Assembly: GCF_054482595.1 (NCBI RefSeq)
Contig: NZ_CM137008.1
DNA: 64,000 bases
Strand: one strand, 5' to 3'
Positions within the stretch are counted from its first letter, which is position 1. Each line of letters opens with the position of its first letter. The notes under the pieces were generated by a model that was not told the origin of the DNA, did not search any database, and was given only the letters and a program-made list of their open reading frames with translations. The position numbers and the translations under genes were made by a program. Shown here in pieces: positions 18,729 to 59,592 of this stretch.

Positions 18729-19913
18729 TTAACTGGCTTTAATTTCTCCATGTGGTACGACAACCCAATCAATATGGTTTTGCGTATAAATCTTGGTTGA
18801 CTTGGAGTCGCTGTGCGCCATTCGTGCTTGCGGATCGATACCTTGCTGATCGAAAAGATACGCTGCTAATGCTCTAATTTCGTGAAAGGTTGGTCTTTCA
18901 TCTATCGGTAGATTGTCGCATAAACCTAGCTTGTCACGTGTGGCTGAAAACGACCGGCTCAAATAGTCCGGTGCAACTTGAGTAGGGTGTGAAACCTCTT
19001 TGCTGCGTTTAACCTGCCGTTCAGGGATCCTGTGAACGACAAACGGACTGGCCACATTATCTCGGCTATCATCAATTATTCGTTTCAACTCTTCACCAAT
19101 CGGTATTGCAACGTGTGATGCCTCTTTTTTTTGCACTTTTTGCCTGTGGATGTAAAGCGTCCCATATATGCCATTTTGTGGTTGTTCGAACCAGACACAT
19201 CCACATATACCGTCTTTAGGTTCGCGAATTGAGTAACGGATTCGCGATACTTCGAGTCGTGCATGTGTAGTCTGCAATGCTAGGTCCATTGCTGTTCTTA
19301 ACCATGGTGCAGCGGCCTGCCTGATAGCTATAAAATGCTCGAGTGACAGGCGCCGTCTTTTCTTCTCATCAGTCCTACGCATTTTTTTTCTGATGGCCGG
19401 GTTATCCAGCATTAGTGATTCATCGACCGCATAAGAGAACAACTTTTTAAGGAAGCTGACCTTTCTGTTCTGCACATTTGCGGATGCGCAGGCATGATAT
19501 TTATTGATGTAGGTATTAACGTGTTCAAGTGCAATATCGCATGCTGGAACATTTACGAAAAACGCTTTTACGCGTAGAGCGTCATTTTTCCAGTCATCTA
19601 AGGTGCTCTGGGAAGGACGTTCGTCTTCGATAATCCGGGTCATTATGTGATCAACATGTTCAGCAAATGGTTTTGCTTCTCCGATAACACCGCCAGATTC
19701 TCTAATAAGATTATCTACTGATGGAGATAATTCTGGTCGCATCCTCAGGTTGTACTCTCTGGCGATTGCAATGGCTATTGCCCTATCCTTACCTATATTT
19801 TTCTTCTTTCCGGTAATAAGTGTGAATTTATAAACACCTCGATCTTTATCAAAAATCAGATAATCAGGAAGATGTCTGTATTCTTTTTTACGTGGCCTTG
19901 CCGCCATGGTCAC
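18729..19913 (-). CDS. int: tyrosine site-specific integrase
   Basis: The 394-aa ORF has a C-terminal HEIR ... HSDSKSTKIY catalytic signature. It is adjacent to attL. Confidence 0.93.
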   Translation of the reverse strand: MTMAARPRKKEYRHLPDYLIFDKDRGVYKFTLITGKKKNIGKDRAIAIAIAREYNLRMRPELSPSVDNLIRESGGVIGEAKPFAEHVDHIMTRIIEDERPSQSTLDDWKNDALRVKAFFVNVPACDIALEHVNTYINKYHACASANVQNRKVSFLKKLFSYAVDESLMLDNPAIRKKMRRTDEKKRRRLSLEHFIAIRQAAAPWLRTAMDLALQTTHARLEVSRIRYSIREPKDGICGCVWFEQPQNGIYGTLYIHRQKVQKKEASHVAIPIGEELKRIIDDSRDNVASPFVVHRIPERQVKRSKEVSHPTQVAPDYLSRSFSATRDKLGLCDNLPIDERPTFHEIRALAAYLFDQQGIDPQARMAHSDSKSTKIYTQNHIDWVVVPHGEIKAS

Positions 19914-20119
19914 CCCTCATTTATTAACTTGCGAACAGCTTGACTAACCATTGAGTCGACTCCCCATTTTTCTGTTTCGCAGACAAAAACAGAACCGTCC
20001 ACGATGCGTCCCATGAGTAGACCGTTCTCGACCCAACGTTTTATCGTTCGGTTGTCAGGAATTGAGCCATTAGAGAATTCACGGCGTCCCCATTGGCTCG
20101 CTTTCATTAGTTTTGCCAT
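19910..20119 (-). CDS. xis: excisionase-like small DNA-binding protein
   Basis: The start was chosen at MAKLMKASQW, with a GGAG Shine-Dalgarno about 7 nt upstream. The gene overlaps the int start by 4 nt. Confidence 0.7.
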   Translation of the reverse strand: MAKLMKASQWGRREFSNGSIPDNRTIKRWVENGLLMGRIVDGSVFVCETEKWGVDSMVSQAVRKLINEG

Positions 20120-20180
20120 GGCTGTTTCTCCACTTAGCCCGCTGCACACGGGTAGTAATATCAAATTCCAGTCCTGATAA

Positions 20181-20396
20181 TTAATTTTGTTCTCTGGTTG
20201 CTACTTGTTTTATTGGCCTGATGCTGTCCAGGAGCAGACGGCGGCGCATGTTTGGCGCGCCCCAACGGTAACCAGTCTTTTTGTCGTAGGATTCACAACG
20301 TCCGACAACCCAGGAGGTTTCAGTGGAATGTAATTTCATCCGCTTTTCACCGTCTCGGGTGATAACAATTCCTGTATGAGTTTTTATCACGCTCAT
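20181..20396 (-). CDS. hypothetical phage protein (71 aa)
   Basis: A GGAG Shine-Dalgarno lies 6 nt upstream. The gene is co-oriented with xis and int. Confidence 0.5.
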   Translation of the reverse strand: MSVIKTHTGIVITRDGEKRMKLHSTETSWVVGRCESYDKKTGYRWGAPNMRRRLLLDSIRPIKQVATREQN

Positions 20397-20598
20397 TTTT
20401 TATTCTCCGGTGCTTTCGGCATTACTGCCCAGTGGGTAATATTGACGTTTTCAAGGTCCCCGACCTGAAATGTCCACTGCCATTCTCCGGTTTCTTTTTG
20501 CCCCCAATGTGTACCAGAGAGAACGCCAGCCAATCAGCCAGCCTTCTCCATTAGCATCAAATAACAGAACACTTTCATGTCTGTTTTGTAAAAAGGAC

Positions 20599-20706
20599 GG
20601 TACCAGCCGGAAGCAAGGGTACAAGCTGGTACCTCCAAGACTACACACAGCATAAAGTTGTGGTGCCGGGTGCCTCCCGGTGCCTGGCGAAGGTTGCACA
20701 CCAGGC
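20599..20706 (+). other. GC-rich cluster of three consecutive hairpins (possible leader or ncRNA)
   Basis: Hairpin A pairs GGTACCAGC (20599-20607) with GCTGGTACC (20625-20633). Hairpin B pairs GGTGCCGGG (20662-20670) with CCCGGTGCC (20676-20684); its two G-U pairs are valid only on the + strand. Hairpin C pairs GCCTGG (20682-20687) with CCAGGC (20701-20706). Confidence 0.4.
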
Positions 20707-20920
20707 GGGTGGGTATCCACAGAAGGTCGACTGTCAGCCTCAACCTTTACCCGCGTGCGCTGAGCCGCATTCACCACAACGCTAAGGATTCTCTCTGGTT
20801 GAAAATACTTAGCTGTTATGTGCCTGCTTTTAGCCACATCAGGCGAGGTGGACCTAGTTATTCCCCAACAACAAGGATTTGGTTATTATGTAACCCTCCC
20901 CAACAACGATAAGGATTTAT

Positions 20921-21010
20921 ATGGAACGATGTGTAGATAAGTATGAGGAGAGGCATGTGCCGTTAAGGCAAAAGCCTCCAGTTCCTCCAAAACCACCCAA
21001 GGAAAACTGA
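20921..21010 (+). CDS. small ORF, 29 aa: MERCVDKYEERHVPLRQKPPVPPKPPKEN
   Basis: An AAGGA Shine-Dalgarno lies 5 nt upstream. The stop is 7 nt before the start of the 2-TM gene. The proline-rich tail is shared with two downstream small ORFs. Confidence 0.55.
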   Translation: MERCVDKYEERHVPLRQKPPVPPKPPKEN

Positions 21011-21017
21011 GACTAAT

Positions 21018-21512
21018 ATGACCAGAGACGATTATAAATTTTATATTCACTACTCTTATGTATTGGAGAAGATGAATTACACGTTGTTAACTCGTATTGA
21101 TAAATTAATAACGTTGATGTTAATCGTTCTCGGTTTTTCAGTTTTCGCCCCGTACAGTAATTTATTTATTTTCGGTTTGTTTGTTGCCGTACTTTCGGTT
21201 CTTCAGTTGGTCTATCAGTTCGGCCAGGAGGCTGGGATGTCTAAAGAACAAGCGAGGCATTACAAAAGACTGCTGATTGAGTCTGATACTCTTTCTGAAG
21301 ATCAGTTGCAAGCTAGGTATTTAAAAATCCAAGATACCGATAGTAATCCATGGAAATCACTTGAACGAGCGGCTTTCATTCGGGCCTGCATTTTTGCTGG
21401 TGTTCCAACTAAGTACGATCTAACAACCAAAGAAAAATTTATTGCTTGGTGTGCGGGAGATCTACCTCTAGAGAATGAACTAACGGATATTAATGATGAC
21501 CAACAAGCATAA
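21018..21512 (+). CDS. 164-aa two-transmembrane protein (SLATT-like topology)
   Basis: Two adjacent hydrophobic helices (LITLMLIVLGFSVFAPY and LFIFGLFVAVLSVLQLVY) are followed by a helical cytoplasmic tail. The gene is AT-rich and sits in the slot between xis and cI. Confidence 0.7.
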   Translation: MTRDDYKFYIHYSYVLEKMNYTLLTRIDKLITLMLIVLGFSVFAPYSNLFIFGLFVAVLSVLQLVYQFGQEAGMSKEQARHYKRLLIESDTLSEDQLQARYLKIQDTDSNPWKSLERAAFIRACIFAGVPTKYDLTTKEKFIAWCAGDLPLENELTDINDDQQA

Positions 21513-21567
21513 TCCAGTTCACGGACATGTACCTCCGAAGCCGAAACCACCGAAACCGAAGAAATGA
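21493..21567 (+). CDS. small ORF, 24 aa: MMTNKHNPVHGHVPPKPKPPKPKK
   Basis: It overlaps the last 20 nt of the 2-TM gene in another frame. I translated it by hand, because it is below the ORF-track cutoff. Confidence 0.45.
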   Translation: MMTNKHNPVHGHVPPKPKPPKPKK

Positions 21568-21586
21568 GACATAATAGGATTGGATA

Positions 21587-21655
21587 ATGAGTCGACCAAT
21601 AGAGCCTTTTCATATTCCACCTCGTCCCAGGCCACCAGATCCAGGCCCAAAGTGA
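21587..21655 (+). CDS. small ORF, 22 aa: MSRPIEPFHIPPRPRPPDPGPK
   Basis: An AGGA Shine-Dalgarno lies 7 nt upstream. An intrinsic terminator follows immediately. Confidence 0.5.
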   Translation: MSRPIEPFHIPPRPRPPDPGPK

Positions 21656-21679
21656 GGGTTACTGATTTTTAAAGAGCGA

Positions 21680-21702
21680 AGCGTCCGGTAGGGCGCTTTT
21701 TT
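21680..21702 (+). terminator. rho-independent terminator closing the small-ORF/2-TM operon
   Basis: The stem AGCGTCC-ggta-GGGCGCT is followed by TTTTTT. Confidence 0.75.
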
Positions 21703-21854
21703 GTTGCTAACGAATCATCTTGGACTTCATATGCCCCAGGCGGCTACTTCGTGAGCGTCCTGCCTGTTTGTTGTTTCTCTTGGGTACATTATGTATCTCA
21801 AAGGTACATTGTCAAGCATAAAAAAACCTGCCGAAGCAGGTTCATAAACATTGA

Positions 21855-22529
21855 TTAGGCTTTGATTTTGTATCTTCTTGGTTTTCCTGAGAAAATCACA
21901 GTACCAATTATAGAGCAATTACCGTTGATCTTAATGTAAGGCTCAGGCCAGTTTGGGTTTAACGCTTTGAGATAACGCTGTGTCCCATCTTCTATCAACC
22001 TTTTGAAGGTGGTTTCACCTGTATCGTGCATCAATGCAATAACGTCGTCACCGTGGCAGGCAGGTACTTCAGGATCGACAAAAATCATGTCTCCCGGGCG
22101 GTACTCATCAATCATTGAATCACCTATCACCCGCAAGATATAAGTCATTTCCCCACAGGGTACAGGGCAGGGATACGTTTCTGCTGTGCTCAAATCAACC
22201 TCAGAATATCCAACTTCTTTCCATGCTCCGGCCTGTACCCATGATATGACAGGGACTAATGTGATTTGTTTATTAGTGATTGAAACATCAGGTTTTTTTG
22301 TGATGTTCGTTGTCTGGTGTTCTTGATCGAGCCATCCGACAGGCAGGTCGAAACATTTTTCGATGTGTCGTGCCATGCTGTCACCGATATTTTTAGTAGC
22401 ACCATCTCCCATAAACCTGCTGGTTTGGGTTGGCTCGCGATCAATCATAGTGGCAAAGGAAGAATTCCCGCCAACACCATCTCTCAGTTTTCTGGCGTTA
22501 GACCGCCGGATGTCATGGATTGTTTTCAT
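21855..22529 (-). CDS. CI-type prophage repressor (HTH plus S24 LexA-like peptidase)
   Basis: The 224-aa ORF has an N-terminal HTH. The C-terminal region has GDSM serine and FKRL lysine motifs. It is divergent from a cro-like gene. Confidence 0.9.
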   Translation of the reverse strand: MKTIHDIRRSNARKLRDGVGGNSSFATMIDREPTQTSRFMGDGATKNIGDSMARHIEKCFDLPVGWLDQEHQTTNITKKPDVSITNKQITLVPVISWVQAGAWKEVGYSEVDLSTAETYPCPVPCGEMTYILRVIGDSMIDEYRPGDMIFVDPEVPACHGDDVIALMHDTGETTFKRLIEDGTQRYLKALNPNWPEPYIKINGNCSIIGTVIFSGKPRRYKIKA

Positions 22530-22619
22530 AACGAAATTAAAACCCTTGTACCGTTAAGGTACAAGTATCTTGAAGGTTCATTTTAATCATGTAATATGTA
22601 TACCGGAGGTACATATTGT

Positions 22620-25923: not shown

Positions 25924-26721
25924 ATGAATAATCTGATGGTCATTGATGGTATTGAAGTTCGTCGTGATGCTTATGGGCGTTACAGCCTGAACGATCTGCA
26001 CAGGGCTGCCGGTTCTCTGGATAAGCATAAGCCTGCATTCTGGCTCCGCAATGAGCAAACTGAACGTTTAATAAGCGAGTTGCAGATTTGCAACTCGGTC
26101 AATATAGAGCCAGTTAACGTTATTCGCGGCGGAAATAATCAGGGGACGTATGTCTGTAAGGAACTGGTGTATGCCTATGCAATGTGGATCAGCCCGTCAT
26201 TCCATCTGAAGGTGATCCGTACTTTCGACATGGTAACCAGCGCACCGGAAAAATTATCCGGACAGGCTGCTGACAAGATGCAGGCTGGAGTGATTCTGCT
26301 GGACTTTATGCGTCGGGAGTTAAACCTGTCTAACTCATCTGTGCTTGGGGCCTGTCAAAAACTCCAGGAGGCTGTTGGCTTACCGAATCTGGCACCGCGC
26401 TATGCCATTGATGCTCCTGCTGATGCACACGATGGCTCAAGTCGCCCCACGCTGTCGCTGAGTGCACTGCTGAAGCAGTATGGTATCCGCCTGACGGCTA
26501 ATCAGGCATATCACCAGATGGTGAAGCTGGGGATCGTTGAACAACGCGAACGATACAGCCGTACCGCGATTAACAACATCAAAAAATTCTGGTCGCTGAC
26601 AGCGAAAGGCTGCATGTTCGGCAAGAACATCACCAGTCCCGCAAATCCGCGCGAGACGCAGCCGCATTTCTTCGAATCCCGATTCCCTGAGCTGTTAAAG
26701 CTGCTCGATACCGTTCATTGA
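25924..26721 (+). CDS. KilA-N domain protein (antirepressor-like)
   Basis: The start was chosen at MNNLMVIDG, with a GGAG Shine-Dalgarno. The protein has a KilA-N signature (YSLNDLHRAAG ... GTYVCKELVYAYAMWISPSFHLKV). Confidence 0.8.
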   Translation: MNNLMVIDGIEVRRDAYGRYSLNDLHRAAGSLDKHKPAFWLRNEQTERLISELQICNSVNIEPVNVIRGGNNQGTYVCKELVYAYAMWISPSFHLKVIRTFDMVTSAPEKLSGQAADKMQAGVILLDFMRRELNLSNSSVLGACQKLQEAVGLPNLAPRYAIDAPADAHDGSSRPTLSLSALLKQYGIRLTANQAYHQMVKLGIVEQRERYSRTAINNIKKFWSLTAKGCMFGKNITSPANPRETQPHFFESRFPELLKLLDTVH

Positions 26722-26722
26722 G

Positions 26723-27718
26723 GTGACCGTGAGAGCACTACTGACCCCTGAAATTGCCCCGCGTATGGGGATCGTATTGTTCAGACCAGGTTCAGAACTG
26801 ATGCCCCTGTTTATGCAGGGGCGTGTCCTGCTGGAGCCTGAGCCGGAACGTTATTCATCTTTCGCCAGTGGTGCCGTTCCGGCAGCATCACAACCGCTGG
26901 CGGATGATCCTGCCGTTCGGGCCGTGTTCCGCAATGAGGCAGTGATCCGTCGTGCTGGTGGCGTGGAATGTCTTGAAAGCTGGTTACTTCGTGAAAAAGG
27001 CTGTCAGTGGCCTCACTCCGACTGGCACAGCGAAAACATGACCACAACGCGCCATGCGCCGGGCGCAATCCGTCTGTGCTGGCACTGCGATAACCAGTTG
27101 CGTGACCAGTTCACGGAACGGCTGGAATCAATGGCAACGGATAACTGTGCCCGCTGGGTGTTATCTGTTGTGCGCCGTGATCTCGGTTTTGATGATAGTC
27201 ACGTTGTGACAATGCCGGAACTGTGCTGGTGGCTGGTTCGTAATGACCTGGCGGATGCCTTACCGGAAAGTGCAGCCCGTAAGGCACTGAGATTACCGAA
27301 GCCTGTTGTGCCGTCTGTCACCCGGGAAAGTGACCTTGTTCCTTCGGTTCCTGCCACCAGCATCATCCAGGATAAGGCGAAAAAGGTGCTGGCGCTGAAA
27401 GTGGATCCGGAGTCACCGGAGTCTTTTATGTTACGCCCAAAACGTCGCCGCTGGGTTAATGAAAAGTACACGCGCTGGGTTAAGACACAGCCGTGTGCAT
27501 GTTGTGGAAAGCCCGCTGATGATCCCCACCACCTGATAGGCCATGGTCAGGGTGGAATGGGGACAAAAGCGCATGACCTCTTTGTGTTGCCTTTGTGCAG
27601 AAAGCATCACGACGAGCTGCATGCGGATACCGTGGCATTTGAAGAGATGTATGGCTCCCAGCTGGAGCTGATATTTCGTTTTATCGATCGTGCGCTGGCA
27701 ATTGGTGTGCTGGCCTGA
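26723..27718 (+). CDS. DUF968-family phage protein (Cys/His-rich C-terminus)
   Basis: The 331-aa ORF has a GTG start and the C-terminal motif CACCGKPADDPHHL ... LCRKHHDELH. Confidence 0.75.
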   Translation: MTVRALLTPEIAPRMGIVLFRPGSELMPLFMQGRVLLEPEPERYSSFASGAVPAASQPLADDPAVRAVFRNEAVIRRAGGVECLESWLLREKGCQWPHSDWHSENMTTTRHAPGAIRLCWHCDNQLRDQFTERLESMATDNCARWVLSVVRRDLGFDDSHVVTMPELCWWLVRNDLADALPESAARKALRLPKPVVPSVTRESDLVPSVPATSIIQDKAKKVLALKVDPESPESFMLRPKRRRWVNEKYTRWVKTQPCACCGKPADDPHHLIGHGQGGMGTKAHDLFVLPLCRKHHDELHADTVAFEEMYGSQLELIFRFIDRALAIGVLA

Positions 27719-27735
27719 TTTTGTGGAGAAAGTTG

Positions 27736-28083
27736 ATGCGTGATATGTATGAAGTAATGGATCGTTGGGGAGCTTGGGCTGCTTCAGACAATAGCGGAGT
27801 GGACTGGCAACCGGTAGCCGCTGGCTTCAAGGGACTTTTACCTCATGGCAAAAAGTCCCGGATTCAGTGTGATGATGACGAAGGCATTATGATAGACAGT
27901 TGTGTGGCTCGGTTGCGTAAATATAGGCCTGAAGAATATGAGCTAATCATTGCTCACTTTGTTATCGGTATCTCATTACGCACTATTGCGAAGAAGAGAA
28001 AATGCTCTGATGGGACTATAAGAAAAAAGTTGCAAGCTGCATTGGGATTTATTGATGCAGTTATATATATAATACATGGGTAA
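27736..28083 (+). CDS. late-gene antiterminator Q (QuuD/YbcQ family)
   Basis: The start was chosen at MRDMYEVMDRWGAWAA, with a GGAG 7 nt upstream. It is similar to the DLP12 and Qin Q proteins. Confidence 0.85.
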   Translation: MRDMYEVMDRWGAWAASDNSGVDWQPVAAGFKGLLPHGKKSRIQCDDDEGIMIDSCVARLRKYRPEEYELIIAHFVIGISLRTIAKKRKCSDGTIRKKLQAALGFIDAVIYIIHG

Positions 28084-28090
28084 TTTATTA

Positions 28091-28110
28091 GACGGCCATA
28101 TTGGCCGTCA
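28091..28110. terminator. bidirectional hairpin between Q and the convergent cargo operon
   Basis: The hairpin is GACGGCCAatatTGGCCGTC. It overlaps the stop codon of the 395-aa gene. Confidence 0.6.
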
Positions 28111-29295
28111 GCTAAATAAATATGTAATAGCATAAGGTGTAAGTAAAAAGTAGAATCTAAATGTAAGATATAAGCCACATAAAACTATAATTCCTAATGA
28201 GGCAAAAACAACTTTCTGAACAAGCAATCTTGTGGTTAAACTATCAAATGTATCCTTTATATCTTCGTAAATAGCCTTGAAGTTATATTCTGCTTGTTGT
28301 TTTTTATGATTTAACTCATCATTTATTGCTGTTAAAGTTTGCCATTGATTAAATAGAACAAATATAATCATAATAGTGAAGAACAATGCACCCAACACTA
28401 CAGCTGTGTTTATTAATGCTTGACTATCCCAACCATTAGCCTGCTTCATTTGAGTCGCAACGATAATTGTTGCGACGGGGATACCTAATATCTGATTTTG
28501 TATGTCACTGAATACTTTATGTATTTTCCCCATCTCTTCTATTTTGGCTACTCGTAACTGATCTAGTATTTTCTCGTAAGAAAAACCAGAAACGAATACT
28601 TTGTATCCTTTTTGATAACTTTCATAAAGTTGTCCTAAATCCCTTAACATGAAGGAAAAAGAGGTTTCTTTAGTTTTAGATTCACATGATGATTTTATAC
28701 TACTTGCTAAAATAGTAAGTTTTTGATCTTTATGCGTATCTTCTGCAAAGTTTGCGATCAAATTATGAATCAGATCTCCATTAACATTCATAAGATCATC
28801 GCTAGAATAATTTACTGGAATTTTTAGTACGTTGGATTCGACGAATACCAATTCAAAATTTGTTTCATCTAAATAAGCAGAACAATCTTTGAATAAAGTA
28901 ATTAAGCTCAAAACATCTCTGTACTTGGATATAATAGCAGGCGACTTTTTATCCCTGTTGTGATAATTAAGTTCGATTATAAAGAAGTTACTGGCTTCCT
29001 TTATCCTATTTTTAGGATTTTTTAAATACTCATTAAAAGAGAAATGTAGCTGCCCCAATCGTAATTTGGGGGGGGTTATATGTAAGGTTATAGTTTGGCC
29101 TAACTCAATGTTGCCAGATTCAAGGGTGATGCCAAAATCATGGGGATTCTCTGTGATATCGTTGATGATGTCACAGAGCTCCTCGTTTGAAAGAATGAGT
29201 GATGCTTCAGATAGGGTACCTGCAAATGTAGCGGCCTTGTAAATAGTCACTAAGTCTTTGAAGGTTCTCTGGTTTTTACTGCTCATCCTCTTCAC
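28108..29295 (-). CDS. 395-aa protein with a soluble N-terminal region and 2-3 C-terminal TM helices (candidate effector)
   Basis: The gene is AT-rich and overlaps the upstream gene by 20 nt (or 11 nt if ATG 29286 is used). Hydrophobic segments are ALINTAVVLGALFFTIMIIFVLF and VVFASLGIIVLCGLYLTFRFYFLL. Confidence 0.75.
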   Translation of the reverse strand: MKRMSSKNQRTFKDLVTIYKAATFAGTLSEASLILSNEELCDIINDITENPHDFGITLESGNIELGQTITLHITPPKLRLGQLHFSFNEYLKNPKNRIKEASNFFIIELNYHNRDKKSPAIISKYRDVLSLITLFKDCSAYLDETNFELVFVESNVLKIPVNYSSDDLMNVNGDLIHNLIANFAEDTHKDQKLTILASSIKSSCESKTKETSFSFMLRDLGQLYESYQKGYKVFVSGFSYEKILDQLRVAKIEEMGKIHKVFSDIQNQILGIPVATIIVATQMKQANGWDSQALINTAVVLGALFFTIMIIFVLFNQWQTLTAINDELNHKKQQAEYNFKAIYEDIKDTFDSLTTRLLVQKVVFASLGIIVLCGLYLTFRFYFLLTPYAITYLFS

Positions 29296-30310
29296 CTAAT
29301 TCTGATAAAATCTCTGATCTTAGCGTATCCGGAATCTCGGTAAGTATCAATTTATCGTTTTCTGAATCATAAAGAACGCTGCCATCATGCAAGGCCGCAC
29401 GCTCGAATTTCAGAGACCAATGTTTGGACTTTCCTTTGAAACTAACAAGCCCACGTATAACGTTGCCATCAGGCACGAACCCATCAGAGAACTCCAGATC
29501 GTCATTGGTTAACTTTTCAACTAACAACTCAGGAGCAGTTGGCCATATCTCGTTTGCAAAAATTTGAGTGTCGAAAGTTTCACCAGAACGATTTAAATTT
29601 TTTAATTTTTCATGAGCCTTATTTAGGAACTCTTCACGTGCCTCTGGTTCAAAACCTCTTTCAGTAGCAAATTCTAAAAGTGCATTCCGTAATTTTGTTG
29701 TTTCTTGTTTGGCAATTAGAATATCGTTGCAACCTAAAAACTTTTTGAAATAACCTGCTACTGAATTTTGCCCCTTTAGAAAGCTAATATATCTCTCTTT
29801 GCCATTCTGGCGCCCAGTTAAGTCAATTCGTCCCGCTACTCGAAGTTTAGCAATGTCTAGATATTCACTTTCTTGAATTTCAAAATCGTGGACTGAAGAG
29901 CCAACTGCTGAAGTTAGGATTGCAACCATCAAATAATGATTTCCATTTACCTCATTATGGGCAATTATTACATAACCACCAGTAGACATTGATTCATCAT
30001 CGGCTCTGGCTTTTAAATGATTGATCATTCGGATACTAGTATCATAAAAACTATGTGTTTTATTTACGAAATAATCATCAACGATATTACCCATAGGGTA
30101 ACTATCGCGGTCATCTTCAAATTTCCCATATCCTTTACCTGCTCTCCCAGAGTACCTTTCAGTAAGTGCGTTAGAGAGGTCTTTTGATGCTTGCTGAACA
30201 GGTTTTTCTGAAGGACAAGGAATAATGGTGGCTAACCCCTGTTGTTCCTTGTTCATAATGTGAACAATAAACTTATGAGTGATATTAGTGGGGGTCGCTG
30301 ATGCAGTCAT
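29276..30310 (-). CDS. NdpA/YejK-family nucleoid-associated-protein homologue (344 aa)
   Basis: An AAGGA Shine-Dalgarno lies 7 nt upstream. The protein aligns with host YejK encoded in this same window. YLDIAKLRVAGRIDLTGRQNGKERYISFLKGQNSVAGYFKKFLG aligns with [65 protein letters not shown] aligns with [17 protein letters not shown]. Confidence 0.85.
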   Translation of the reverse strand: MTASATPTNITHKFIVHIMNKEQQGLATIIPCPSEKPVQQASKDLSNALTERYSGRAGKGYGKFEDDRDSYPMGNIVDDYFVNKTHSFYDTSIRMINHLKARADDESMSTGGYVIIAHNEVNGNHYLMVAILTSAVGSSVHDFEIQESEYLDIAKLRVAGRIDLTGRQNGKERYISFLKGQNSVAGYFKKFLGCNDILIAKQETTKLRNALLEFATERGFEPEAREEFLNKAHEKLKNLNRSGETFDTQIFANEIWPTAPELLVEKLTNDDLEFSDGFVPDGNVIRGLVSFKGKSKHWSLKFERAALHDGSVLYDSENDKLILTEIPDTLRSEILSELGEEDEQ

Positions 30311-30426
30311 AACAACATCCTTTTAATGGTTTTGAACAATTGGTGTTGATAATACTTCAAAAAATACTAATGCGTACGCAAAAAATACAGTACTCTGTTA
30401 AGAGTGGTTACTTCGCCACACAGCTT

Positions 30427-30449
30427 AAACCCGCCGTTGAGCGGGTTTT
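30427..30449 (+). terminator. tR'-like terminator in the late leader upstream of the holin
   Basis: The hairpin is AAACCCGCcgttgaGCGGGTTT followed by a T-rich tract. This position is analogous to the lambda 6S RNA terminator read through by Q. Confidence 0.6.
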
Positions 30450-30600
30450 GTCGTTTCTGGGGCTGGGGATTCGTTGGTCCTGGTCTATTCCGCAGTTATC
30501 CATTGGTTCGGCTTCTTTGACGTTTCCGCTTCTAATTTGCTGTACATGATGTTCCCTCAATTTGCACCTGCTGTATCAGCGAGGTGAGAGATAACTACAA

Positions 30601-30927
30601 ATGCCTCATAACCCAAATACCTGGCTGGAGTTGGTCCAGAGCTGGTGGCGTGGAGACACACCACTGGGCGCAGTGATTATGTCGATCGTTATGGCTGGCT
30701 TGCGCATTGCCTATTTTGGCGGTGGTGGTGGCTGGAAGCGAAAAACGCTTGAGATTTTACTCTGTGGCGCTCTGACGCTGACATTTGCATCCGCGCTTGA
30801 GTATGTCGGATGGCCTAAATCACTATCTGTTGCCATTGGTGGTGGGGTGGGGCTGATCGGTGTCGATGCTATTCGTGGGGCTGCAATGCGAGTAATCGGT
30901 AACAAGTTTGGTGGCTCTAAGGAGTAA
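30601..30927 (+). CDS. holin, lambda S family
   Basis: The 108-aa ORF has 3 TM segments. Its C-terminus LIGVDAIRGAAMRVIGNKFGG parallels lambda S. Confidence 0.85.
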   Translation: MPHNPNTWLELVQSWWRGDTPLGAVIMSIVMAGLRIAYFGGGGGWKRKTLEILLCGALTLTFASALEYVGWPKSLSVAIGGGVGLIGVDAIRGAAMRVIGNKFGGSKE

Positions 30928-30930
30928 TTT

Positions 30931-31407
30931 ATGCAGGTACTAAATTCCCAGCGTAAAGCTTTTCTCGATATGTTGGCGTGGTCAGAAGGAACGGATAACG
31001 GGCGACAGCCAACCCGCAATCACGGCTACGACGTTATTGTAGGTGGTGAGCTATTCACGGATTACTCCGATCATCCTCGCAAACTTGTCACGCTAAACCC
31101 GCAACTTAAATCAACCGCAGCTGGACGTTACCAGCTTCTTTCCCGTTGGTGGGATGCCTACCGCAAGCAGCTTGGCCTGAAAGACTTCTCTCCGAAAAAC
31201 CAGGACGCTGTTGCACTGCAGCAGATTAAGGAGCGTGGCGCTTTACCGATGATTGATCGCGGTGATATCCGTCAGGCTATCGACCGTTGCAGCAATATCT
31301 GGGCTTCACTGCCGGGCGCTGGTTATGGCCAGTTCGAGCATAAGGCTGACAGCCTGATTGCAAAATTCAAAGAAGCAGGCGGAACGGTCAGAGAGATTGA
31401 GGTATGA
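30931..31407 (+). CDS. endolysin, lambda R-type lytic transglycosylase
   Basis: The 158-aa ORF is nearly identical to lambda R as recalled ([22 protein letters not shown]...). Confidence 0.95.
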
Positions 31408-31865
31408 GCAGATTAACCGCGATTATCTCCGCTCTGCTCATCTGCATCATCGTCTGCATGTCATTGGCTGTTAATCATTATCGTGATAACGCCATTACCT
31501 ACAAAGCCCAGCGCGACAAAAATGCCAGAGAACTGAAGCTGGCGAACGCGGCAATTACTGACATGCAGGTGCGCCAACGTGATGTCGCTGCGCTCGATGC
31601 AAAATACACGAAGGAGTTAGCTGATGCGAAAGCTGAAAATGATGCTCTGCGTGATGATGTTGCCGCTGGTCGTCGTCGGTTGCACATCAAAGCAGTCTGT
31701 CAGTCAGTGCGTGAAGCCACCACCGCCTCCGGCATGGATAATGCAGCCTCCCCCCGACTGGCAGACACCGCTGAACGGGATTATTTCACTCTCAGAGAGA
31801 GGCTGATCACTATGCAAAAACAACTGGAAGGAACCCAGAAGTATATTAATGAGCAGTGCAGATAG
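31404..31865 (+). CDS. i-spanin Rz
   Basis: The 153-aa ORF has an N-terminal TM helix and is lambda Rz-like. Confidence 0.92.
31624..31806 (+). CDS. o-spanin lipoprotein Rz1, embedded in Rz in the +1 frame
   Basis: The 60-aa ORF has a lipobox (VVGC) and a proline-rich mature part, as in lambda Rz1. Confidence 0.9.
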
Positions 31866-31896
31866 AGCTGCCCATATCGATGGGCAACTCATGCAA

Positions 31897-32190
31897 TTAT
31901 TGTGAGCAATACACCCGCGCTTCCAGCGGAGTATAAATGCCTAAAGTAATAAAACCGAGCAATCCATTTACGAATGTTTGCTGGGTTTCTGTTTTAACAA
32001 CATTTTCTGCGCCGCCACAAATTTTGGCTGCATCAACAGTTTTCTGCTGTCCAATTCCCGAAACGAAGAAATGATGGGTGATGGTTTCCTTTGGTGTTAC
32101 TGCTGTCGGTTTGTTTCCAACAGTAAACGTCTGTTGAGCACATCCTGTAATAAGCATTGCCAGAGCGGCAGAAAACAACATTTTTTTCAT
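31897..32190 (-). CDS. bor: Bor-family outer-membrane lipoprotein (serum resistance)
   Basis: The start was chosen at MKKMLFSAALAMLITGC (97 aa). It is a close match to lambda Bor. Confidence 0.92.
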   Translation of the reverse strand: MKKMLFSAALAMLITGCAQQTFTVGNKPTAVTPKETITHHFFVSGIGQQKTVDAAKICGGAENVVKTETQQTFVNGLLGFITLGIYTPLEARVYCSQ

Positions 32191-32714
32191 CTTATTATCC
32201 TGCATTGTTAAAAACGGCAGAATCCTATGTGACAACAATTAAACGATAGTTAAATGGATTGATGAAAATTAAAACTATATAGGTGTACGGTCAGACTATT
32301 GGAGGTAGTCAGGATTTGAATGTCAGTCTGTTGTCGGCATTCTGGCAATGCAATTTGGATAAAGCGGGGATTAAAAAGATAGAGGCGAGCCGGTCAGGTA
32401 GAAATGAATCAGGCTCAAATTGAAGCGGAAAAGGTCTGTGGCACAAACTGATGCTGCCATAATTACAGCCTGATGACTTGTGGAATGAAACATGTTGAAC
32501 CTCCTTAATTGATGTGATTCGAGTGAGGAAGGCATTCTGTCCCTCTATAGTGTCCATTAAATCAAACGGGAAATTTGTCTCATGCGTGAGACAAGTCTCT
32601 CCATTAGTGAGTTGTATTGATTGCGACTCTTCAAAGAATCCATTACTGCGTTGATGAAAAAGGTTTACTACGAATGAAGGCAGCTATTTCGCTGGTTTCT
32701 TCATTGGAGTACAT

Positions 32715-33065
32715 ATGCCCCCACGAACCCCAAAAGCCTGCCGTGTTCGCGGCTGCCGCTTTACAACCACGGACCCTTCAGGCTACTGCGAAAGCCACAA
32801 AAGCGAAGGCTGGAAGCAATACAAACCTGGACAATCCCGTCATCAGCGCGGCTACGGTTCGAAGTGGGACAGTATCCGCGCGCGTGTCCTGAAGCGTGAC
32901 AAAGGCCTGTGTCAGTTATGTCTGCGTGCTGGTGTGGTGCGTGAGGCGAAGACCGTTGACCACATCATCCCTAAATCGCATGGCGGCACTGATGTCGACA
33001 GTAATCTGCAGAGTTTGTGCTGGCCGTGTCATAAGGCGAAGACGGCCCGTGAACGGCTGAAGTAA
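32715..33065 (+). CDS. HNH endonuclease associated with terminase
   Basis: The 116-aa ORF has DHIIPKSHGG ... N ... CWPCH motifs. It lies immediately upstream of terS, as in HK97-type cos phages. Confidence 0.88.
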   Translation: MPPRTPKACRVRGCRFTTTDPSGYCESHKSEGWKQYKPGQSRHQRGYGSKWDSIRARVLKRDKGLCQLCLRAGVVREAKTVDHIIPKSHGGTDVDSNLQSLCWPCHKAKTARERLK

Positions 33066-33190
33066 GAACCAGTTCCCACTGCCAGAGGGGAGGGGCGGGT
33101 CAAATCCCTGTGACCTGACGTCTTCTGGACTGCCCGCCCCATCGTTTTTTTATACCCGCGAAAAATGAAATTTAACCAGGAGTGCCGCAT

Positions 33191-33685
33191 ATGGCTGGAA
33201 CGGCGGGGCGTTCCGGGCGTCGCCCCAAGCCAACGGCGCGCAAGGCGCTGGCCGGAAACCCCGGCAAGCGAGCCCTGAATAAAGATGAACCTGTTTTTAC
33301 GCCCATCAAAGGTGTTGAGCCACCGGAGTGGTTCGCTGAAGAAGATCTCCCTCTCGCCACGATCATGTGGCAACTGACAACCAAAGAACTCTGCGGTCAG
33401 GGCCTGCTGTGCGTGACTGACCTCGCGGTGCTTGAGCGGTGGTGTGTGGCCTATGAGTTCTGGCGACGTGCCGTGAAAAATATTGCCAGACAGGGCAACA
33501 CCATCACCGGTGCAATGGGCGGTATGGTCAAAAATCCTGAGCTGACCGCCAAAAAAGAACAGGAGTCCGAGATGAGCAGTACGGGGGCAATGCTCGGACT
33601 CGACCCCAGCAGCCGCCAGCGTCTGATTGGCCTGGCGGGGCAGAAGAAAGCCACTAACCCGTTTCTGAAAATTATCGAATCATGA
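33191..33685 (+). CDS. terminase small subunit, P27 family
   Basis: The ORF begins [27 protein letters not shown], with a GGAG 8 nt upstream. Confidence 0.88.
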
Positions 33686-35415
33686 GCCGGAAATCTTATC
33701 CCAACGTAAATGCTGCCAATCAGTATGCCCGGGATGTCGTTCGCGGAAAGATTGTGGCCTGCCAGTTTGTGATTCAGGCCTGCCAGCGCCATCTTGATGA
33801 CCTGATGGCGGAAAAAAGTAAGTCGTTTCGTTACCGCTTCGACAAGGACCTGGCTGAACGGGCCGCCAAATTTATTCAGCTGTTGCCGCATACCAAGGGT
33901 GAGTGGGCATTCAAACGGATGCCCATCACGCTGGAGCCGTGGCAGCTCTTTGTGATCTGCTGTGCGTTTGGCTGGGTCAATAAAGGTACCCGGCTGCGCC
34001 GCTTCCGGGAGGTGTATACCGAAATCCCCCGTAAGAACGGCAAATCGGCAATCTCTGCCGGTGTCGCCCTGTATTGTTTTGCCTGTGATAACGAGTTTGG
34101 CGCGGAAGTGTATTCCGGTGCCACGACAGAGAAACAGGCGTGGGAAGTCTTTCGCCCGGCGCGACTGATGTGTAAACGCACACCCATGCTGACGGAAGCG
34201 TTCGGGATTGAGGTTAACGCCTCAAACATGAACCGTCCGGAGGATGGCGCGCGGTTTGAGCCGCTGATCGGTAACCCCGGTGATGGTTCATCACCCCACT
34301 GTGCGGTGGTGGATGAATATCACGAGCATGCCACCGATGCACTTTACACCACGATGCTTACCGGGATGGGGGCGCGACGTCAGCCACTGATGTGGGCCAT
34401 CACCACCGCCGGGTACAACATTGAGGGGCCGTGCTACGACAAGCGGCGGGAAGTTCTCGAGATGCTCAACGGTTCGGTACCCAACGATGAACTGTTCGGG
34501 ATCATCTATACCGTTGACGAAGGCGATGACTGGACCGACCCGCAGGTGCTGGAAAAAGCCAATCCAAATATTGGCGTGTCGGTTTATCGCGAATTTTTGT
34601 TAAGTCAGCAGCAGCGTGCGAAAAATAACGCCCGTCTGGCAAACGTCTTTAAAACAAAACACCTCAATATCTGGGTGTCGGCGCGTTCGGCGTATTTCAA
34701 CCTGGTGAGCTGGCAGAGCTGCGAGGATAAATCACTGACCCTTGAGCAGTTCGAGGGGCAGCCGTGCATTCTGGCCTTTGACCTGGCGCGTAAGCTGGAT
34801 ATGAACAGCATGGCGCGACTTTATACCCGCGAGATTGACGGTAAAACGCATTACTACAGTGTGGCCCCGCGTTTCTGGGTACCGTATGACACGGTGTACA
34901 GCGTCGAGAAAAATGAAGATCGACGGACAGCCGAACGCTTTCAGAAATGGGTGGAAATGGGCGTTCTGACCGTTACCGATGGTGCGGAAGTGGATTATCG
35001 CTACATCCTCGAGGAGGCCAAAGCGGCGAACAAAATCAGCCCGGTCAGTGAGTCACCCATCGACCCCTTCGGGGCGACCGGGTTGTCACATGACCTTGCT
35101 GATGAAGACCTGAATCCCGTCACTATCGTCCAGAACTTCACCAATATGTCCGACCCGATGAAAGAGCTGGAAGCGGCGATTGAATCGGGACGTTTTCATC
35201 ATGACGGCAATCCCATCATGACCTGGTGTATCGGCAACGTGGTCGGCAAAACCATTCCGGGTAACGATGATGTGGTGAAGCCCGTCAAAGAGCAGGCGGA
35301 AAACAAAATCGATGGTGCAGTTGCGCTGATTATGGCGGTTGGCAGAGCCATGCTGTACGAGAAAGAAGACACGCTGTCTGACCACATTGAGTCCTATGGG
35401 ATCCGCTCGCTTTAA
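33682..35415 (+). CDS. terminase large subunit
   Basis: The 577-aa ORF has an ATPase Walker-like motif (IPRKNGKS) and a nuclease C-terminus. It is coupled to terS. Confidence 0.92.
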
Positions 35416-35426
35416 CTGAGGTAATT

Positions 35427-35609
35427 ATGATCATGCTGATTCTCGCGCCTCTGGTGGGCGTGCTGGGGGCGCTTTTGCTGGCGTATGGTGCCTGGCTGAT
35501 TTATCCCCCGGCGGGGTTTGTTGTTGCCGGGGCGTTGTGCCTGTTCTGGTCGTGGCTGGTGGCGCGATATCTCGACCGTACACAGTCGTCTGCCGGCGGA
35601 GGTAAATAG
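35427..35609 (+). CDS. small membrane protein (60 aa)
   Basis: It has a GAGG Shine-Dalgarno and two hydrophobic helices. It lies between the terminase and portal genes. Confidence 0.55.
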
Positions 35610-36850
35610 TGTTCTTTTCGGGATTATTTCAACGAAAAAGTGACGCACCGGTGACCACGCCAGCAGAGCTGGCGGATGCTATCGGGTTGTCCTACGACAC
35701 CTATACCGGAAAGCAGATCAGCAGCCAGCGGGCCATGCGACTGACGGCGGTTTTTTCCTGTGTCAGGGTGCTGGCGGAGTCGGTCGGGATGTTGCCCTGC
35801 AACCTGTATCACCTGAACGGCAGCCTGAAGCAGAGAGCCACTGGCGAACGTCTGCATAAGCTGATCTCCACGCATCCCAATGGCTATATGACGCCGCAGG
35901 AGTTCTGGGAGCTGGTGGTCACCTGTCTGTGCCTGCGGGGAAACTTTTACGCCTACAAAGTGAAAGCATTTGGCGAAGTGGCTGAACTGCTGCCCGTCGA
36001 TCCCGGCTGTGTGGTACCGAAGCTTAACAGTAGCTGGGAGCCGGTCTATCAGGTCACATTCCCGGATGGCTCCACGGATGTACTGAGCCAGGAGGATATC
36101 TGGCATGTGCGCACGCTGACGCTGGACGGACTGGTGGGGCTGAATCCCATCGCCTATGCCCGCGAGGCAATATCGCTGGCGGCAGCGACCGAAGAGCACG
36201 GGGCCAGACTGTTCAGCAATGGCGCGGTGACGTCGGGTGTGTTGCGTACAGAGCAGACGCTGTCAGATCAGGCTTATGAGCGCCTGAAGAAAGATTTTGA
36301 GGAGCGTCACACCGGGCTTGGCAATGCTCACCGCCCGATGATCCTTGAGATGGGGCTGGACTGGAAGTCGATGGCGCTGAACGCCGAGGACAGCCAGTTC
36401 CTGGAAACCCGCAGGTTTCAGCTTGAAGAAATCTGTCGTCTGTTCCGGGTGCCGTTGCACATGGTGCAGAACACCGATCGCGCCACCTTCAACAATATCG
36501 AAGAGCTGGGGCTGGGATTTATCAACTATTCACTGGTGCCGTATCTGACCCGCATCGAACAGCGGATCAACACCGGACTGGTACGAAAAAGTAAGCAGGG
36601 CGTTTATTACGCCAAATTTAACGCCGGGGCGTTACTGCGCGGGGATATGAAGTCCCGTTTTGAAGCCTACGCCACCGGGATCAACTGGGGAATTTACTCT
36701 CCCAATGACTGCCGCGACCTGGAAGATATGAATCCGCGTCCCGGTGGTGATGTCTATCTCACACCGATGAACATGACCACGAAACCCTCCGATGGCAGTA
36801 AAGCCGGTAAGCAGAAGGATAACGCCAATGCAGACGAAACAACGTCTTGA
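35609..36850 (+). CDS. portal protein, HK97 family
   Basis: The 413-aa ORF sits in the expected position, and its sequence character matches HK97-type portals. Confidence 0.9.
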   Translation: MFFSGLFQRKSDAPVTTPAELADAIGLSYDTYTGKQISSQRAMRLTAVFSCVRVLAESVGMLPCNLYHLNGSLKQRATGERLHKLISTHPNGYMTPQEFWELVVTCLCLRGNFYAYKVKAFGEVAELLPVDPGCVVPKLNSSWEPVYQVTFPDGSTDVLSQEDIWHVRTLTLDGLVGLNPIAYAREAISLAAATEEHGARLFSNGAVTSGVLRTEQTLSDQAYERLKKDFEERHTGLGNAHRPMILEMGLDWKSMALNAEDSQFLETRRFQLEEICRLFRVPLHMVQNTDRATFNNIEELGLGFINYSLVPYLTRIEQRINTGLVRKSKQGVYYAKFNAGALLRGDMKSRFEAYATGINWGIYSPNDCRDLEDMNPRPGGDVYLTPMNMTTKPSDGSKAGKQKDNANADETTS

Positions 36851-37478
36851 TGTACCGCTGAGTCTGAAATCTGTCAGTGACTCCGGTGAGTTTGAAGGGT
36901 ATGGCTCTGTCTTTGGTGTAAAGGACAGCCACGATGATGTGGTGATGTCCGGGGCATTTGCTGCTTCCCTGCGGGCGTGGAGTGACAGAAAAGCGTTACC
37001 TGCACTGCTCTGGCAGCACCGTATGGATGAGCCCATCGGTGTTTACACCGAAATGAAGGAAGACGATGTCGGGCTTTACGTCAGGGGGCGGTTGCTCATT
37101 GATGATGATCCCCTGGCAAAACGCGCACATGCACACATGAAGGCCGGTTCGCTAACCGGCCTTTCTATTGGGTACGTCCTGAAGGACTGGGAATACGACC
37201 GGACGAAAGAAGCCTTTCTGCTGAAAGAAATCGACCTCTGGGAAGTCAGTCTGGTGACGTTTCCGTCTAACGACGAGGCGCGGATCAGCGACGTCAAGAA
37301 CGCGCTGGCCCGCGGGGAAATCCCCGAACAGAAAAAAATCGAAAGAGTCCTGCGTGATGTCGGACTCTCCCGTACCCAGGCCAAAGCATTCATGGCCGGG
37401 GGCTATGGCGCACTGTCCCTGCGCGACGCTGAGGATGTGGGCTCTGCACTGAATGCACTGAAAAATCTGAACTTCTAA
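36828..37478 (+). CDS. prohead maturation protease, HK97 family
   Basis: The start was chosen at MQTKQRLD, with an AAGGA Shine-Dalgarno. The protein has GYGSVFG ... SIGY ... EVSLVTFPSN motifs. Confidence 0.88.
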   Translation: MQTKQRLDVPLSLKSVSDSGEFEGYGSVFGVKDSHDDVVMSGAFAASLRAWSDRKALPALLWQHRMDEPIGVYTEMKEDDVGLYVRGRLLIDDDPLAKRAHAHMKAGSLTGLSIGYVLKDWEYDRTKEAFLLKEIDLWEVSLVTFPSNDEARISDVKNALARGEIPEQKKIERVLRDVGLSRTQAKAFMAGGYGALSLRDAEDVGSALNALKNLNF

Positions 37479-37492
37479 TCAGGAGAAATACG

Positions 37493-55705: not shown

Positions 55706-55762
55706 GGGATTTTTGGTCGGCACGAGAGGATTTGAACCTCCGACCCCCGACACCCCATGACG
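55706..55762. repeat. attR: 57-bp repeat forming the 3' part of the intact proL
   Basis: It is identical to 16229-16285. Confidence 0.92.
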
Positions 55763-55790
55763 GTGCGCTACCAGGCTGCGCTACGTGCCG
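55714..55790 (-). tRNA. proL: tRNA-Pro (anticodon GGG)
   Basis: The reverse complement reads CGGCACGTAGCGCAGCCTGGTAGCGCACCGTCATGGGGTGTCGGGGGTCGGAGGTTCAAATCCTCTCGTGCCGACCA. It folds by hand into a cloverleaf, with anticodon loop AUGGGGU and a terminal CCA. Confidence 0.93.

Positions 55791-59199: not shown

Positions 59200-59592
<393 letters not shown>

Follow-up and report, generated by a model that had tools for sequence, protein, structure and literature searches.

The minus strand of an e14/SfV-like lambdoid prophage quite probably encodes, between positions 20813 and 20587 of the DNA analysed here, a modular prophage RNA of about 225 nt which belongs to the STnc100/PasD family and which, judged by its relatives, would act as a small RNA and as an attenuator. 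The prophage lies in a stretch of 64,000 nt (NCBI RefSeq assembly GCF_054482595.1, contig NZ_CM137008.1), which is referred to as the window in the following. The original prediction, made from the sequence alone, had assigned three hairpins (A, B and C) and a threefold repeated, Shine-Dalgarno-containing module to a plus-strand leader or non-coding RNA in front of a mini-ORF operon, rather than to random spacer. That a structured non-coding RNA is present was borne out, but the strand, the roles of the hairpins and the decoy ribosome-binding sites had to be revised. The Rfam scan suggested at that time gave one meaningful match, STnc100 (RF02076), but on the minus strand: the model aligns over its full length (positions 1-206 of 206) with 20810-20587 at 39.9 bits and an E-value of 1.6e-6. 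This score lies below the gathering threshold of 47, at which no STnc100 match is found anywhere in the window. On sequence grounds we regard the element as a sub-threshold variant of a known sRNA family and not as something categorically new.

STnc100 and PasD are prophage-encoded sRNAs of Salmonella and pathogenic E. coli. The STnc100 copies of the EHEC lysogen EDL933 are expressed according to RNA-seq, one of them also according to Northern blotting (PMC5331693). PasD was found by RIL-seq, which sequences Hfq-bound RNAs, and a shared ancestor with STnc100 has been proposed (bioRxiv 10.64898/2026.05.13.724894). The copy of the element in SfV and the more distant copies in ST64B, Cronobacter phiES15 and P1-like phages match the STnc100 model on the same strand. 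The invariant 3' motif of the family, CACCGGGAGGCACCCGGCACCA, occurs once in the window, as an exact copy on the minus strand at 20682-20661; this motif of 20-22 nt does not vary across many Enterobacterales species, and neither do several bases at the junctions. BLAST comparisons show 20580-20851 to be a self-contained mobile block that is 92-99% identical in SfV, SfII, SfIV, phage Kati and others, and that is present at a coverage of at least 80% in 1,827 of 5,426 complete E. coli genomes, i.e. about one third. The block common to other phages ends at 20580, and this left edge coincides with the end of hairpin A and its minus-strand U-run.

The layout of the prophage was taken from the open reading frames of the window and from the annotation of an identical E. 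coli strain (Table 1). A search of the neighbouring ORFs with Pfam, PHROGs and PADLOC returned only families of unknown function. The strong promoter at 21815-21788 overlaps two operator-like palindromes, repeats which are common to the cI/cro intergenic region (repeat family D1), and appears from its sequence to be the pL equivalent. Transcripts starting there head leftward, antisense to the plus-strand ORFs, and minus-strand transcripts arriving at the RNA element after induction probably come from this promoter. Going downstream from the promoter, one reaches the element and, after it, a gene remnant, the 71-aa gene, xis and int. The element is co-oriented with the genes that follow it, as is the case for nearly all members of the family.

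Table 1. Features of the prophage region, with coordinates of the window; paired strands are given in the order in which they occur in the minus-strand RNA.
Feature	Position	Strand	Basis
int	18729-19913	minus	ORFs/annotation
Excisionase-like gene (xis)	19910-20164	minus	ORFs/annotation
71-aa gene	20181-20396	minus	ORFs/annotation
Frameshifted C-terminal remnant of phage gene phrog_583	20393-20591	minus	two-frame PHROG match
Rho-independent terminator = hairpin A (stem 20633-20625 with 20607-20599, then GUCCUUUUUACA)	20587-20633	minus	sequence and fold
Single-stranded stretch UUUAUGCUGUGUGUAGUCUUGGA	20634-20656	minus	local alignment to KilS
Pseudoknotted core closed by P1	20657-20780	minus	Rfam, covariation
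P1, closing helix (GUUGUGGUG with CACCACAAC)	20780-20772 with 20665-20657	minus	covariation
P5 = hairpin B (CCGGG-AGGCA-CCCGG)	20680-20666	minus	covariation
P4 = hairpin C	20705-20699 with 20689-20683	minus	anchored search
H-type pseudoknot (AAGGUUG with CAACCUU)	20747-20741 with 20696-20690	minus	anchored search
P2	20768-20764 with 20758-20753	minus	invariant, so covariation cannot test P2
P0, 5' hairpin (GCUAAGUAUUUUC 20813-20801 with GAGAAUCCUUAGC 20793-20781)	20781-20813	minus	MFE fold
Conserved upstream block CCACCUCGCCUGAUGUGGCUAAAAGCAGGCACAUAAC	20814-20860	minus	common to relatives whatever follows
Two repeat units (modules 2 and 3), family D2: (A)AAUCCUU..GUUGUUGGGGA on minus, CCCCAACAAC..AAGGATT on plus	20861-20920	both	
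29-aa (29-codon) ORF	20921-21010	plus	ORFs/annotation
164-aa ORF	21018-21512	plus	ORFs/annotation
Two small Pro-rich ORFs	with the plus-strand ORF group after the gap	plus	ORFs/annotation
Leftward early promoter, pL-like (TTGACA-16-CATAAT)	21788-21815	minus	promoter scan, 11/12 matches
LexA-family cI-like repressor gene	21855-22529	minus	ORFs/annotation
cro-like and ymfL-like genes	beyond the cI-like gene	plus	ORFs/annotation

To analyze the structure of the family, viral contigs were scanned for the invariant 3' motif and the variant 5' motif, which yielded 161 distinct sequences of the canonical and variant types. A whole-core MAFFT alignment loses register in the variable middle from clade to clade; P4 and the pseudoknot were therefore analyzed by an anchored search with controls. 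P1, P4, P5 and the pseudoknot, which joins the loop of P4 to the segment just after P2, the 5' hairpin of the core, covary across the 161 sequences in the anchored counts. Covariation across related loci, which had been named as a test, is present and points to the minus strand. At position 4 of P1 the pair is UA in 103 sequences, CG in 38 and UG in 17, and at position 5 it is GC in 107 and AU in 42. P5 occurs as CCGGG/CCCGG in 122 sequences and as CCUGG/CCAGG in 39 without exception (GC in 122 versus UA in 39); its loop contains GGAGG. More than 25 differing complementary sequence pairs occupy the same pseudoknot position, and directly 5' of P1, at the position of P0, a helix is formed by differing complementary sequences in at least 8 clades. 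Among 36 sequences of the variant subfamily, defined by GAAUGCGGC, 98.8% of the cells pair, and the covariation score is 0.188, a value that none of 500 shuffles attains, as compared to 0.084 after shuffling and at most 0.058 when the helix partners are slid against each other.

The same data indicate which strand carries the RNA. In the wobble test on P1 positions 0-6, G-U combinations outnumber A-C combinations by 58 to 14, as fits a minus-strand RNA and the reverse of what fits a plus-strand RNA. The mean lengths of P4 and the pseudoknot are 7.1 and 6.1 bp when minus-strand G-U pairs are allowed, versus 4.6 and 5.4 bp in antisense mode and 3.1 and 3.7 bp in shuffled sequences. Because the STnc100 match, the excess of G-U over A-C in P1 and the longer P4 and pseudoknot with minus-strand G-U pairs all agree, the RNA is assigned to the minus strand and the plus-strand reading is set aside. 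As a result, several details of the hairpins had to be corrected. The CCGGG/CCCGG helix of hairpin B, placed originally at 20662-20684, is present at 20666-20680, but the two G-U pairs of the hairpin as originally drawn do not fix the plus strand: relatives keep only the inner 5 bp as a helix (P5), and the flanking bases that had been paired are part of the closing helix P1. Hairpin C (20682-20706) likewise exists, with CCTGGTG/CGCCAGG at 20683-20705, but B and C are not alternative structures; they are adjacent helices with two bases (CA, 20682-20681) between them.

Hairpin A at 20599-20633 was found as predicted, with GGTACCAGC (20625-20633) pairing with GCTGGTACC (20599-20607) in a 9-bp stem. 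On the minus strand, and there only, this stem runs into a U-run (CCUUUUU). In a scan made for this analysis, a stable hairpin with a T-run follows the core in 82 of 96 canonical members, at a median distance of 59 nt. For the part between core and terminator, a different relative was found. KilS, encoded upstream of kilR in the Rac prophage of E. coli K-12, was found by RIL-seq of Hfq-bound RNA pairs and validated by Northern blotting (PMC8175672); KilS and DicF (Qin prophage) are Hfq-dependent K-12 sRNAs encoded upstream of the cell-division-inhibitor genes kilR and dicB, respectively (PMC8175672 for KilS). In a local alignment, window positions 20660-20587 correspond to KilS positions 28-100, and both share UGCUGUGUGUAGUC as well as the terminator, whose stem covaries between the two (GGCAUCAG/CUGAUGUCC versus GGUACCAGC/GCUGGUACC). 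The single-stranded stretch at 20634-20656 is conserved in the SfV, ST64B and e14 copies and is, by analogy, a candidate base-pairing seed. The Rfam DicF model (RF00039) gives 76.7 bits for K-12 DicF and 39.1 bits for the 3' part of KilS, which is thus DicF-like; in window positions 19500-22500 it has no match at E-values up to 10.

E. coli K-12 itself carries relatives of the element in three prophages. The e14 copy is 92.5% identical to that of the window, has two changes in P5 and lies beneath ymfH (b1142), an ORF counted among the members of the intE-xisE-ymfH operon and of the YmfT iModulon. Variant cores are present in Qin between dicF and dicB (34.4 bits) and in Rac between kilS and kilR (28 bits), where they end 31-36 nt before the start codons of dicB and kilR. 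A distance of 31-43 nt, with no terminator in between, separates the end of the core from the starts of dicB, kilR and other ORFs in Qin-like, Rac-like and P1-like phages. A structured element between dicF and dicB or between kilS and kilR is described neither in the preprint on the regulation of the dicBF operon nor in the RIL-seq paper reporting KilS (PMC8175672). Because of the KilS/DicF-like tail and the placement of the cores in Qin and Rac, the family is modular, being composed of P0, an optional core, a seed and a terminator, with the core elsewhere standing directly before an ORF.

Upstream of the RNA lies the block at 20814-20860, which could be promoter or leader sequence and whose conservation extends to SfV, SfIV, K-12 e14 and more than 100 viral contigs. 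The three-copy module of the original prediction was recovered as repeat family D2 at 20774-20790, 20863-20879 and 20901-20917, with 76-88% identity between copies. The first copy is, however, not a Shine-Dalgarno element but the complement of the P0 3' strand and of part of the P1 5' strand. In minus-strand reading, modules 2 and 3 are AAAUCCUUGUUGUUGGGGAAU and AAAUCCUUAUCGUUGUUGGGGAGG, similar to AAUCCUUAGCGUUGUGGUGAAU at the 5' edge of the element; GTTGTTGGGGA occurs exactly twice in 20861-20920. Module 2 together with the next 50 nt is found in at least 120 viral contigs. The core follows in 69 of 128 occurrences of module 2, and other P0-type hairpins or recombinant sequences follow in the rest. 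Beyond a module-3-like unit lie phage-specific cargo genes on the strand opposite to the RNA, which start right after CCCCAACAAC, as for example SfIV gp36. Modules 2 and 3 thus mark the place where the RNA element meets exchangeable cargo of the plus strand, as a shared junction or control region. The proposal that module 3 drives the 29-codon ORF fits this picture in so far as the module is plausibly, by its position, the ribosome-binding region of this ORF. The start-stop ATG-TAA after module 2 is indeed located at 20888-20893, but the idea of a conserved decoy finds no support; as the ATG-TAA is confined to 13 of the 128 contigs with module 2, we read it as incidental.

Taken together, these comparisons make a plus-strand leader or non-coding RNA with three Shine-Dalgarno modules, two of them decoys, as controlling element of the mini-ORF operon very improbable. 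Such a leader would be in line with the AAGGA of module 3 lying 6 nt before the ATG at 20921, with the position of CCCCAACAAC before the starts of cargo genes in many phages, and with a fold of the plus strand (-85 kcal/mol, z -2.35) that is somewhat better than that of shuffled sequences. Both strands fold better than chance, the minus strand more so (-95.1 kcal/mol, z -4.0, a value reached by none of 200 shuffles). The evidence from covariation and wobble pairs, however, points throughout to the minus strand, as does the U-run of hairpin A; module 1 is buried in helices of the minus-strand RNA, the ATG-TAA is rare among related contigs, no plus-strand promoter consensus lies upstream, and transfer of the block 20580-20851 between phages is not tied to the plus-strand genes. 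For the most part, the comparative sequence data already refute the plus-strand model.

A minus-strand protein-coding gene, whether real or decayed, as implied by ymfH, by fragments called by PGAP and by SfIV gp34/gp35, is even less credible and can be given hardly any weight. ORF calls and annotation speak in its favour, with a 128-aa ORF at 20451-20837, ymfH over the e14 copy and a PGAP pseudogene at the equivalent of 20581-20777. The substitutions in the helices, however, are compensatory, and no open frame runs through the family: of 65 members of the subfamily, 17 have the best frame open on the RNA strand and 27 on the other strand. Over the RNA, neither Pfam nor PHROGs match the 128-aa ORF, whose only match, phrog_583, stems from the remnant downstream. 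Because no reading frame is conserved and the lengths of the core distribute evenly among the residues modulo 3, the ORF calls over the element (K-12 ymfH, the PGAP pseudogene, SfIV gp34 and gp35) are in all likelihood artefacts. The left flank is a different matter. Here, two separate frames match phrog_583, one over its positions 56-88 and the other over 83-119, directly downstream of the terminator, at the left recombination junction near 20580, and PGAP annotates a pseudogene in the identical E. coli strain at the equivalent of 20393-20582. Thus, the statement that the gap contains no convincing ORF is correct in that no real gene covers the hairpins, but it overlooked this remnant, and the possibility of a decayed coding gene, named originally as grounds for refutation, applies to 20393-20591 and not to the hairpins.

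With respect to function, the experimentally detected relatives STnc100, PasD, KilS and DicF serve as a model, and we therefore propose an sRNA role. Transcription that starts at pL upon induction, or at a weak promoter belonging to the element, would mostly stop at the terminator (around 20590). Termination would release a stable structured RNA that may act as an Hfq-dependent base-pairing sRNA through its KilS-like stretch, while the same terminator would attenuate read-through into xis and int. As the likeliest reading, the invariant pseudoknotted core would bind a conserved host factor or stabilize the RNA. As no sigma-70 consensus promoter lies directly upstream, with none found on either strand in a scan of 20300-21100, expression of the RNA in the lysogen is doubtful. 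A sigma-54-like GGCAC..GC, considered as a candidate minus-strand promoter, has the wrong spacing on inspection. A minus-strand RNA of the STnc100/PasD family with this combined sRNA and attenuator action is what we consider the best explanation, and we hold it to be probable, its functional part being drawn by analogy.

Some of the observations would be explained at least as well by a leader acting in cis as by an sRNA, in particular the co-orientation with the downstream genes and the cores that stand 31-43 nt before dicB and kilR without a terminator. According to this alternative, which we take seriously but regard as rather unlikely, the core would be a riboswitch-like, factor-binding or nut/put-like (antitermination or anti-Rho) leader that decides on the passage of RNA polymerase or ribosomes into the downstream genes, here via the terminator to the 71-aa gene, xis and int, and the released RNA would be a by-product. 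The longest ORF of at least 90 aa within 1.5 kb downstream is located on the strand of the element in 93% of the canonical and 98% of the subfamily members, and the same short spacing to ORF starts recurs for genes other than dicB and kilR in Qin-, Rac- and P1-like phages. The place of the element in SfV and ST64B, between cI and the first early-left gene, is that of nutL in lambda and putL in HK022. In the prophage studied here, transcripts from pL must run through the terminator to get to xis and int, and binding of a conserved host component would fit the invariance of the motif and of several junction bases across many Enterobacterales species. On the other hand, HK022 has no match to the family in positions 26000-38000, so that the element is not a put homologue, and the BoxA-like sequence is the variable 3' strand of P0 and therefore not a BoxA of the nut type. 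The cores of Qin and Rac are positioned downstream of the DicF and KilS terminators and cannot help polymerase past them. No match to an Rfam riboswitch family was obtained, inspection revealed no alternative, antiterminating pairing, and no ligand or partner is known.

A more specific form of such cis action, in which the core is a self-contained functional RNA domain that binds a conserved host component such as RNA polymerase, the ribosome, a nuclease or a chaperone and thereby governs, from the start of phage transcription units, the read-through into downstream genes or their translation, is put forward here only as a tentative idea that we consider unlikely. If it were correct, the core would represent a new class of phage cis-regulatory RNA that has been hidden under an sRNA label and under the ORF ymfH, and the genes under its control would include dicB and kilR in E. 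coli K-12 as well as xis and int in the present prophage. Such a role would be directly testable in K-12.

Overall, replacing the plus-strand reading leads to reannotation of the locus as a minus-strand RNA element. The comparisons indicate that a DNA segment found in about one third of the complete E. coli genomes, which is labelled hypothetical protein, pseudogene or ymfH at present, is an RNA element. They also tie four separately described prophage RNAs (STnc100, PasD, KilS and DicF) into one modular scheme, and they place a strongly conserved pseudoknotted domain directly before dicB and kilR, toxic genes whose regulation is under study. Four points appear to be undescribed in the cited literature: the pseudoknot, the modular connection with KilS and DicF, the core before dicB and kilR, and the misannotation as ymfH.

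When the element is compared to known systems, the sites of HK022 put and lambda nut resemble it in location, since in SfV and ST64B it likewise follows the repressor gene and opens the early-left operon, and put is, like the element, a structured nascent RNA. However, put consists of two stem-loops in about 70 nt (PMC9378689), whereas the core comprises about 125 nt and a pseudoknot. Homology to put was rejected, as HK022 positions 26000-38000 contain no STnc100-type match at E-values up to 10. A BoxA/nut assignment was also dismissed: the candidate sequences, UGCUCUUU in P1-like clades and AAUCCUUA in the window, form the 3' strand of the covarying helix P0 and are base-paired. Regarding the requirements of a lambda-type nut site, a non-exhaustive look identified no N gene. 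A tRNA-like origin had been considered because of the T-arm-like GGTTCGATTCC in the P0 loop of some relatives and was discarded, as ARAGORN finds no tRNA.

The e14 prophage of K-12 shares with the window the order of int, xis, the element, a plus-strand cargo gene and a cI-like repressor gene; there, ymfH is annotated as a gene for a hypothetical protein, whereas the comparative data indicate an RNA element. With KilS (b4833) and DicF the element shares its location in leftward early operons of lambdoid prophages, and the 3' two thirds of KilS align with window positions 20652-20587. The order of the modules differs, however: in Rac and Qin the sRNA and its terminator are followed by the core and then by kilR or dicB, whereas in the window the core is followed by the KilS-like tail and terminator. 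STnc100 and PasD correspond to the element in their closing helix, 5' hairpin, variable middle and invariant 3' motif, in the Rho-independent terminator after the core and in their location in lambdoid prophages, in agreement with the same-strand, full-length alignment to the model. They differ from it in the stretch between core and terminator, which is KilS-like in the element, and in the 5' hairpin motif, which is GAAUGCGGCUCAGCGCACGCGG in the element versus GAAUCCCCCUnnGCGGnGGGGC in canonical members. Finally, canonical members are found in the late region near Q, stx, nanS-p or the holin gene, whereas the element described here belongs to the early-left (pL) unit next to xis and int.

Variants of the STnc100-type core are also found in two prophages of E. 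coli K-12, Qin and Rac, where each fills the spacer between a small RNA gene and a protein gene (see table). The distance from the end of the core to the start codon of dicB or kilR, both of which are cell-division inhibitor genes, amounts to 31-36 nt. In the Qin clade, P1, the helix closing the core, is lengthened to about 20 bp. A core in the dicF-dicB or kilS-kilR spacer is absent from the preprint on regulation of the dicBF operon and from the RIL-seq paper that reported KilS.

On some phage contigs (e.g. L018, L035, L049, L069, L074 and L122) two family members are arranged in tandem, about 270-900 nt apart. In some relatives (phage contig L145, 7060-7150, and related contigs) the large loop of the 5' hairpin P0 contains the T-arm-like sequences CTGGTTCGATTCCAG and GTCCGTTCAATTCGGAC; no tRNA was called by ARAGORN on these loops.

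In the window, the element's 3' end coincides with a mosaic junction at about 20580. The minus-strand segment 20393-20591 is what remains, with a frameshift, of the C-terminal part of a phage gene (phrog_583). On the other side, a plus-strand cargo unit (20921-21700) runs convergent to transcription from the pL-like leftward early promoter. Its 164-aa predicted membrane protein is covered over the full length by a match to phrog_6315, the PGAP annotation being limited to the C-terminal 91 aa, and small ORFs rich in proline (29, 24 and 22 aa) flank the 164-aa ORF. Searches of the cargo unit with Pfam and PADLOC gave no match.

Control signals of the prophage and variant STnc100-type cores in K-12
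Feature	Location	Strand	Context
Operator-like palindromes TGTACC..GGTACA	window 21772-21815		left of cI
Operator-like palindromes TGTACC..GGTACA, further occurrence	window 22547-22612		between cI and cro
Near-consensus leftward promoter	window 21815-21788		overlapped by the palindromes left of cI
Hairpin terminator	window 21843-21824	minus	directly past the cI stop codon
Terminator	window 21678-21699	plus	closes cargo unit
Variant core	L229 2433-2642 (K-12 Qin)		fills dicF-dicB spacer
Variant core	L227 2723-2909 (K-12 Rac)		fills kilS-kilR spacer

Above threshold, Rfam matches in the window (55717-55790 and 59506-59531, minus strand) are confined to a tRNA gene and an L25 ribosomal-protein leader; these two probably mark the host chromosome past the prophage. 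Neither C4 antisense RNA nor IsrK is reported in the window at Rfam gathering thresholds; both exceed Rfam thresholds in SfV (L001, 726-914) and ST64B (L002, 909-1097), where they lie in the rightward early region.

In the K-12 prophage e14 the same RNA element lies beneath the ORF ymfH (L339, 3570-3881), and in this copy one nucleotide of P5, a hairpin inside the core, is deleted and one G is replaced by A. Over-expression of ymfH is listed in a preprint among the triggers of RcaT, the toxin of the retron toxin/antitoxin system examined in that work (10.1101/2020.06.22.160242). The RNA rather than a protein could be the cause of this effect on RcaT.
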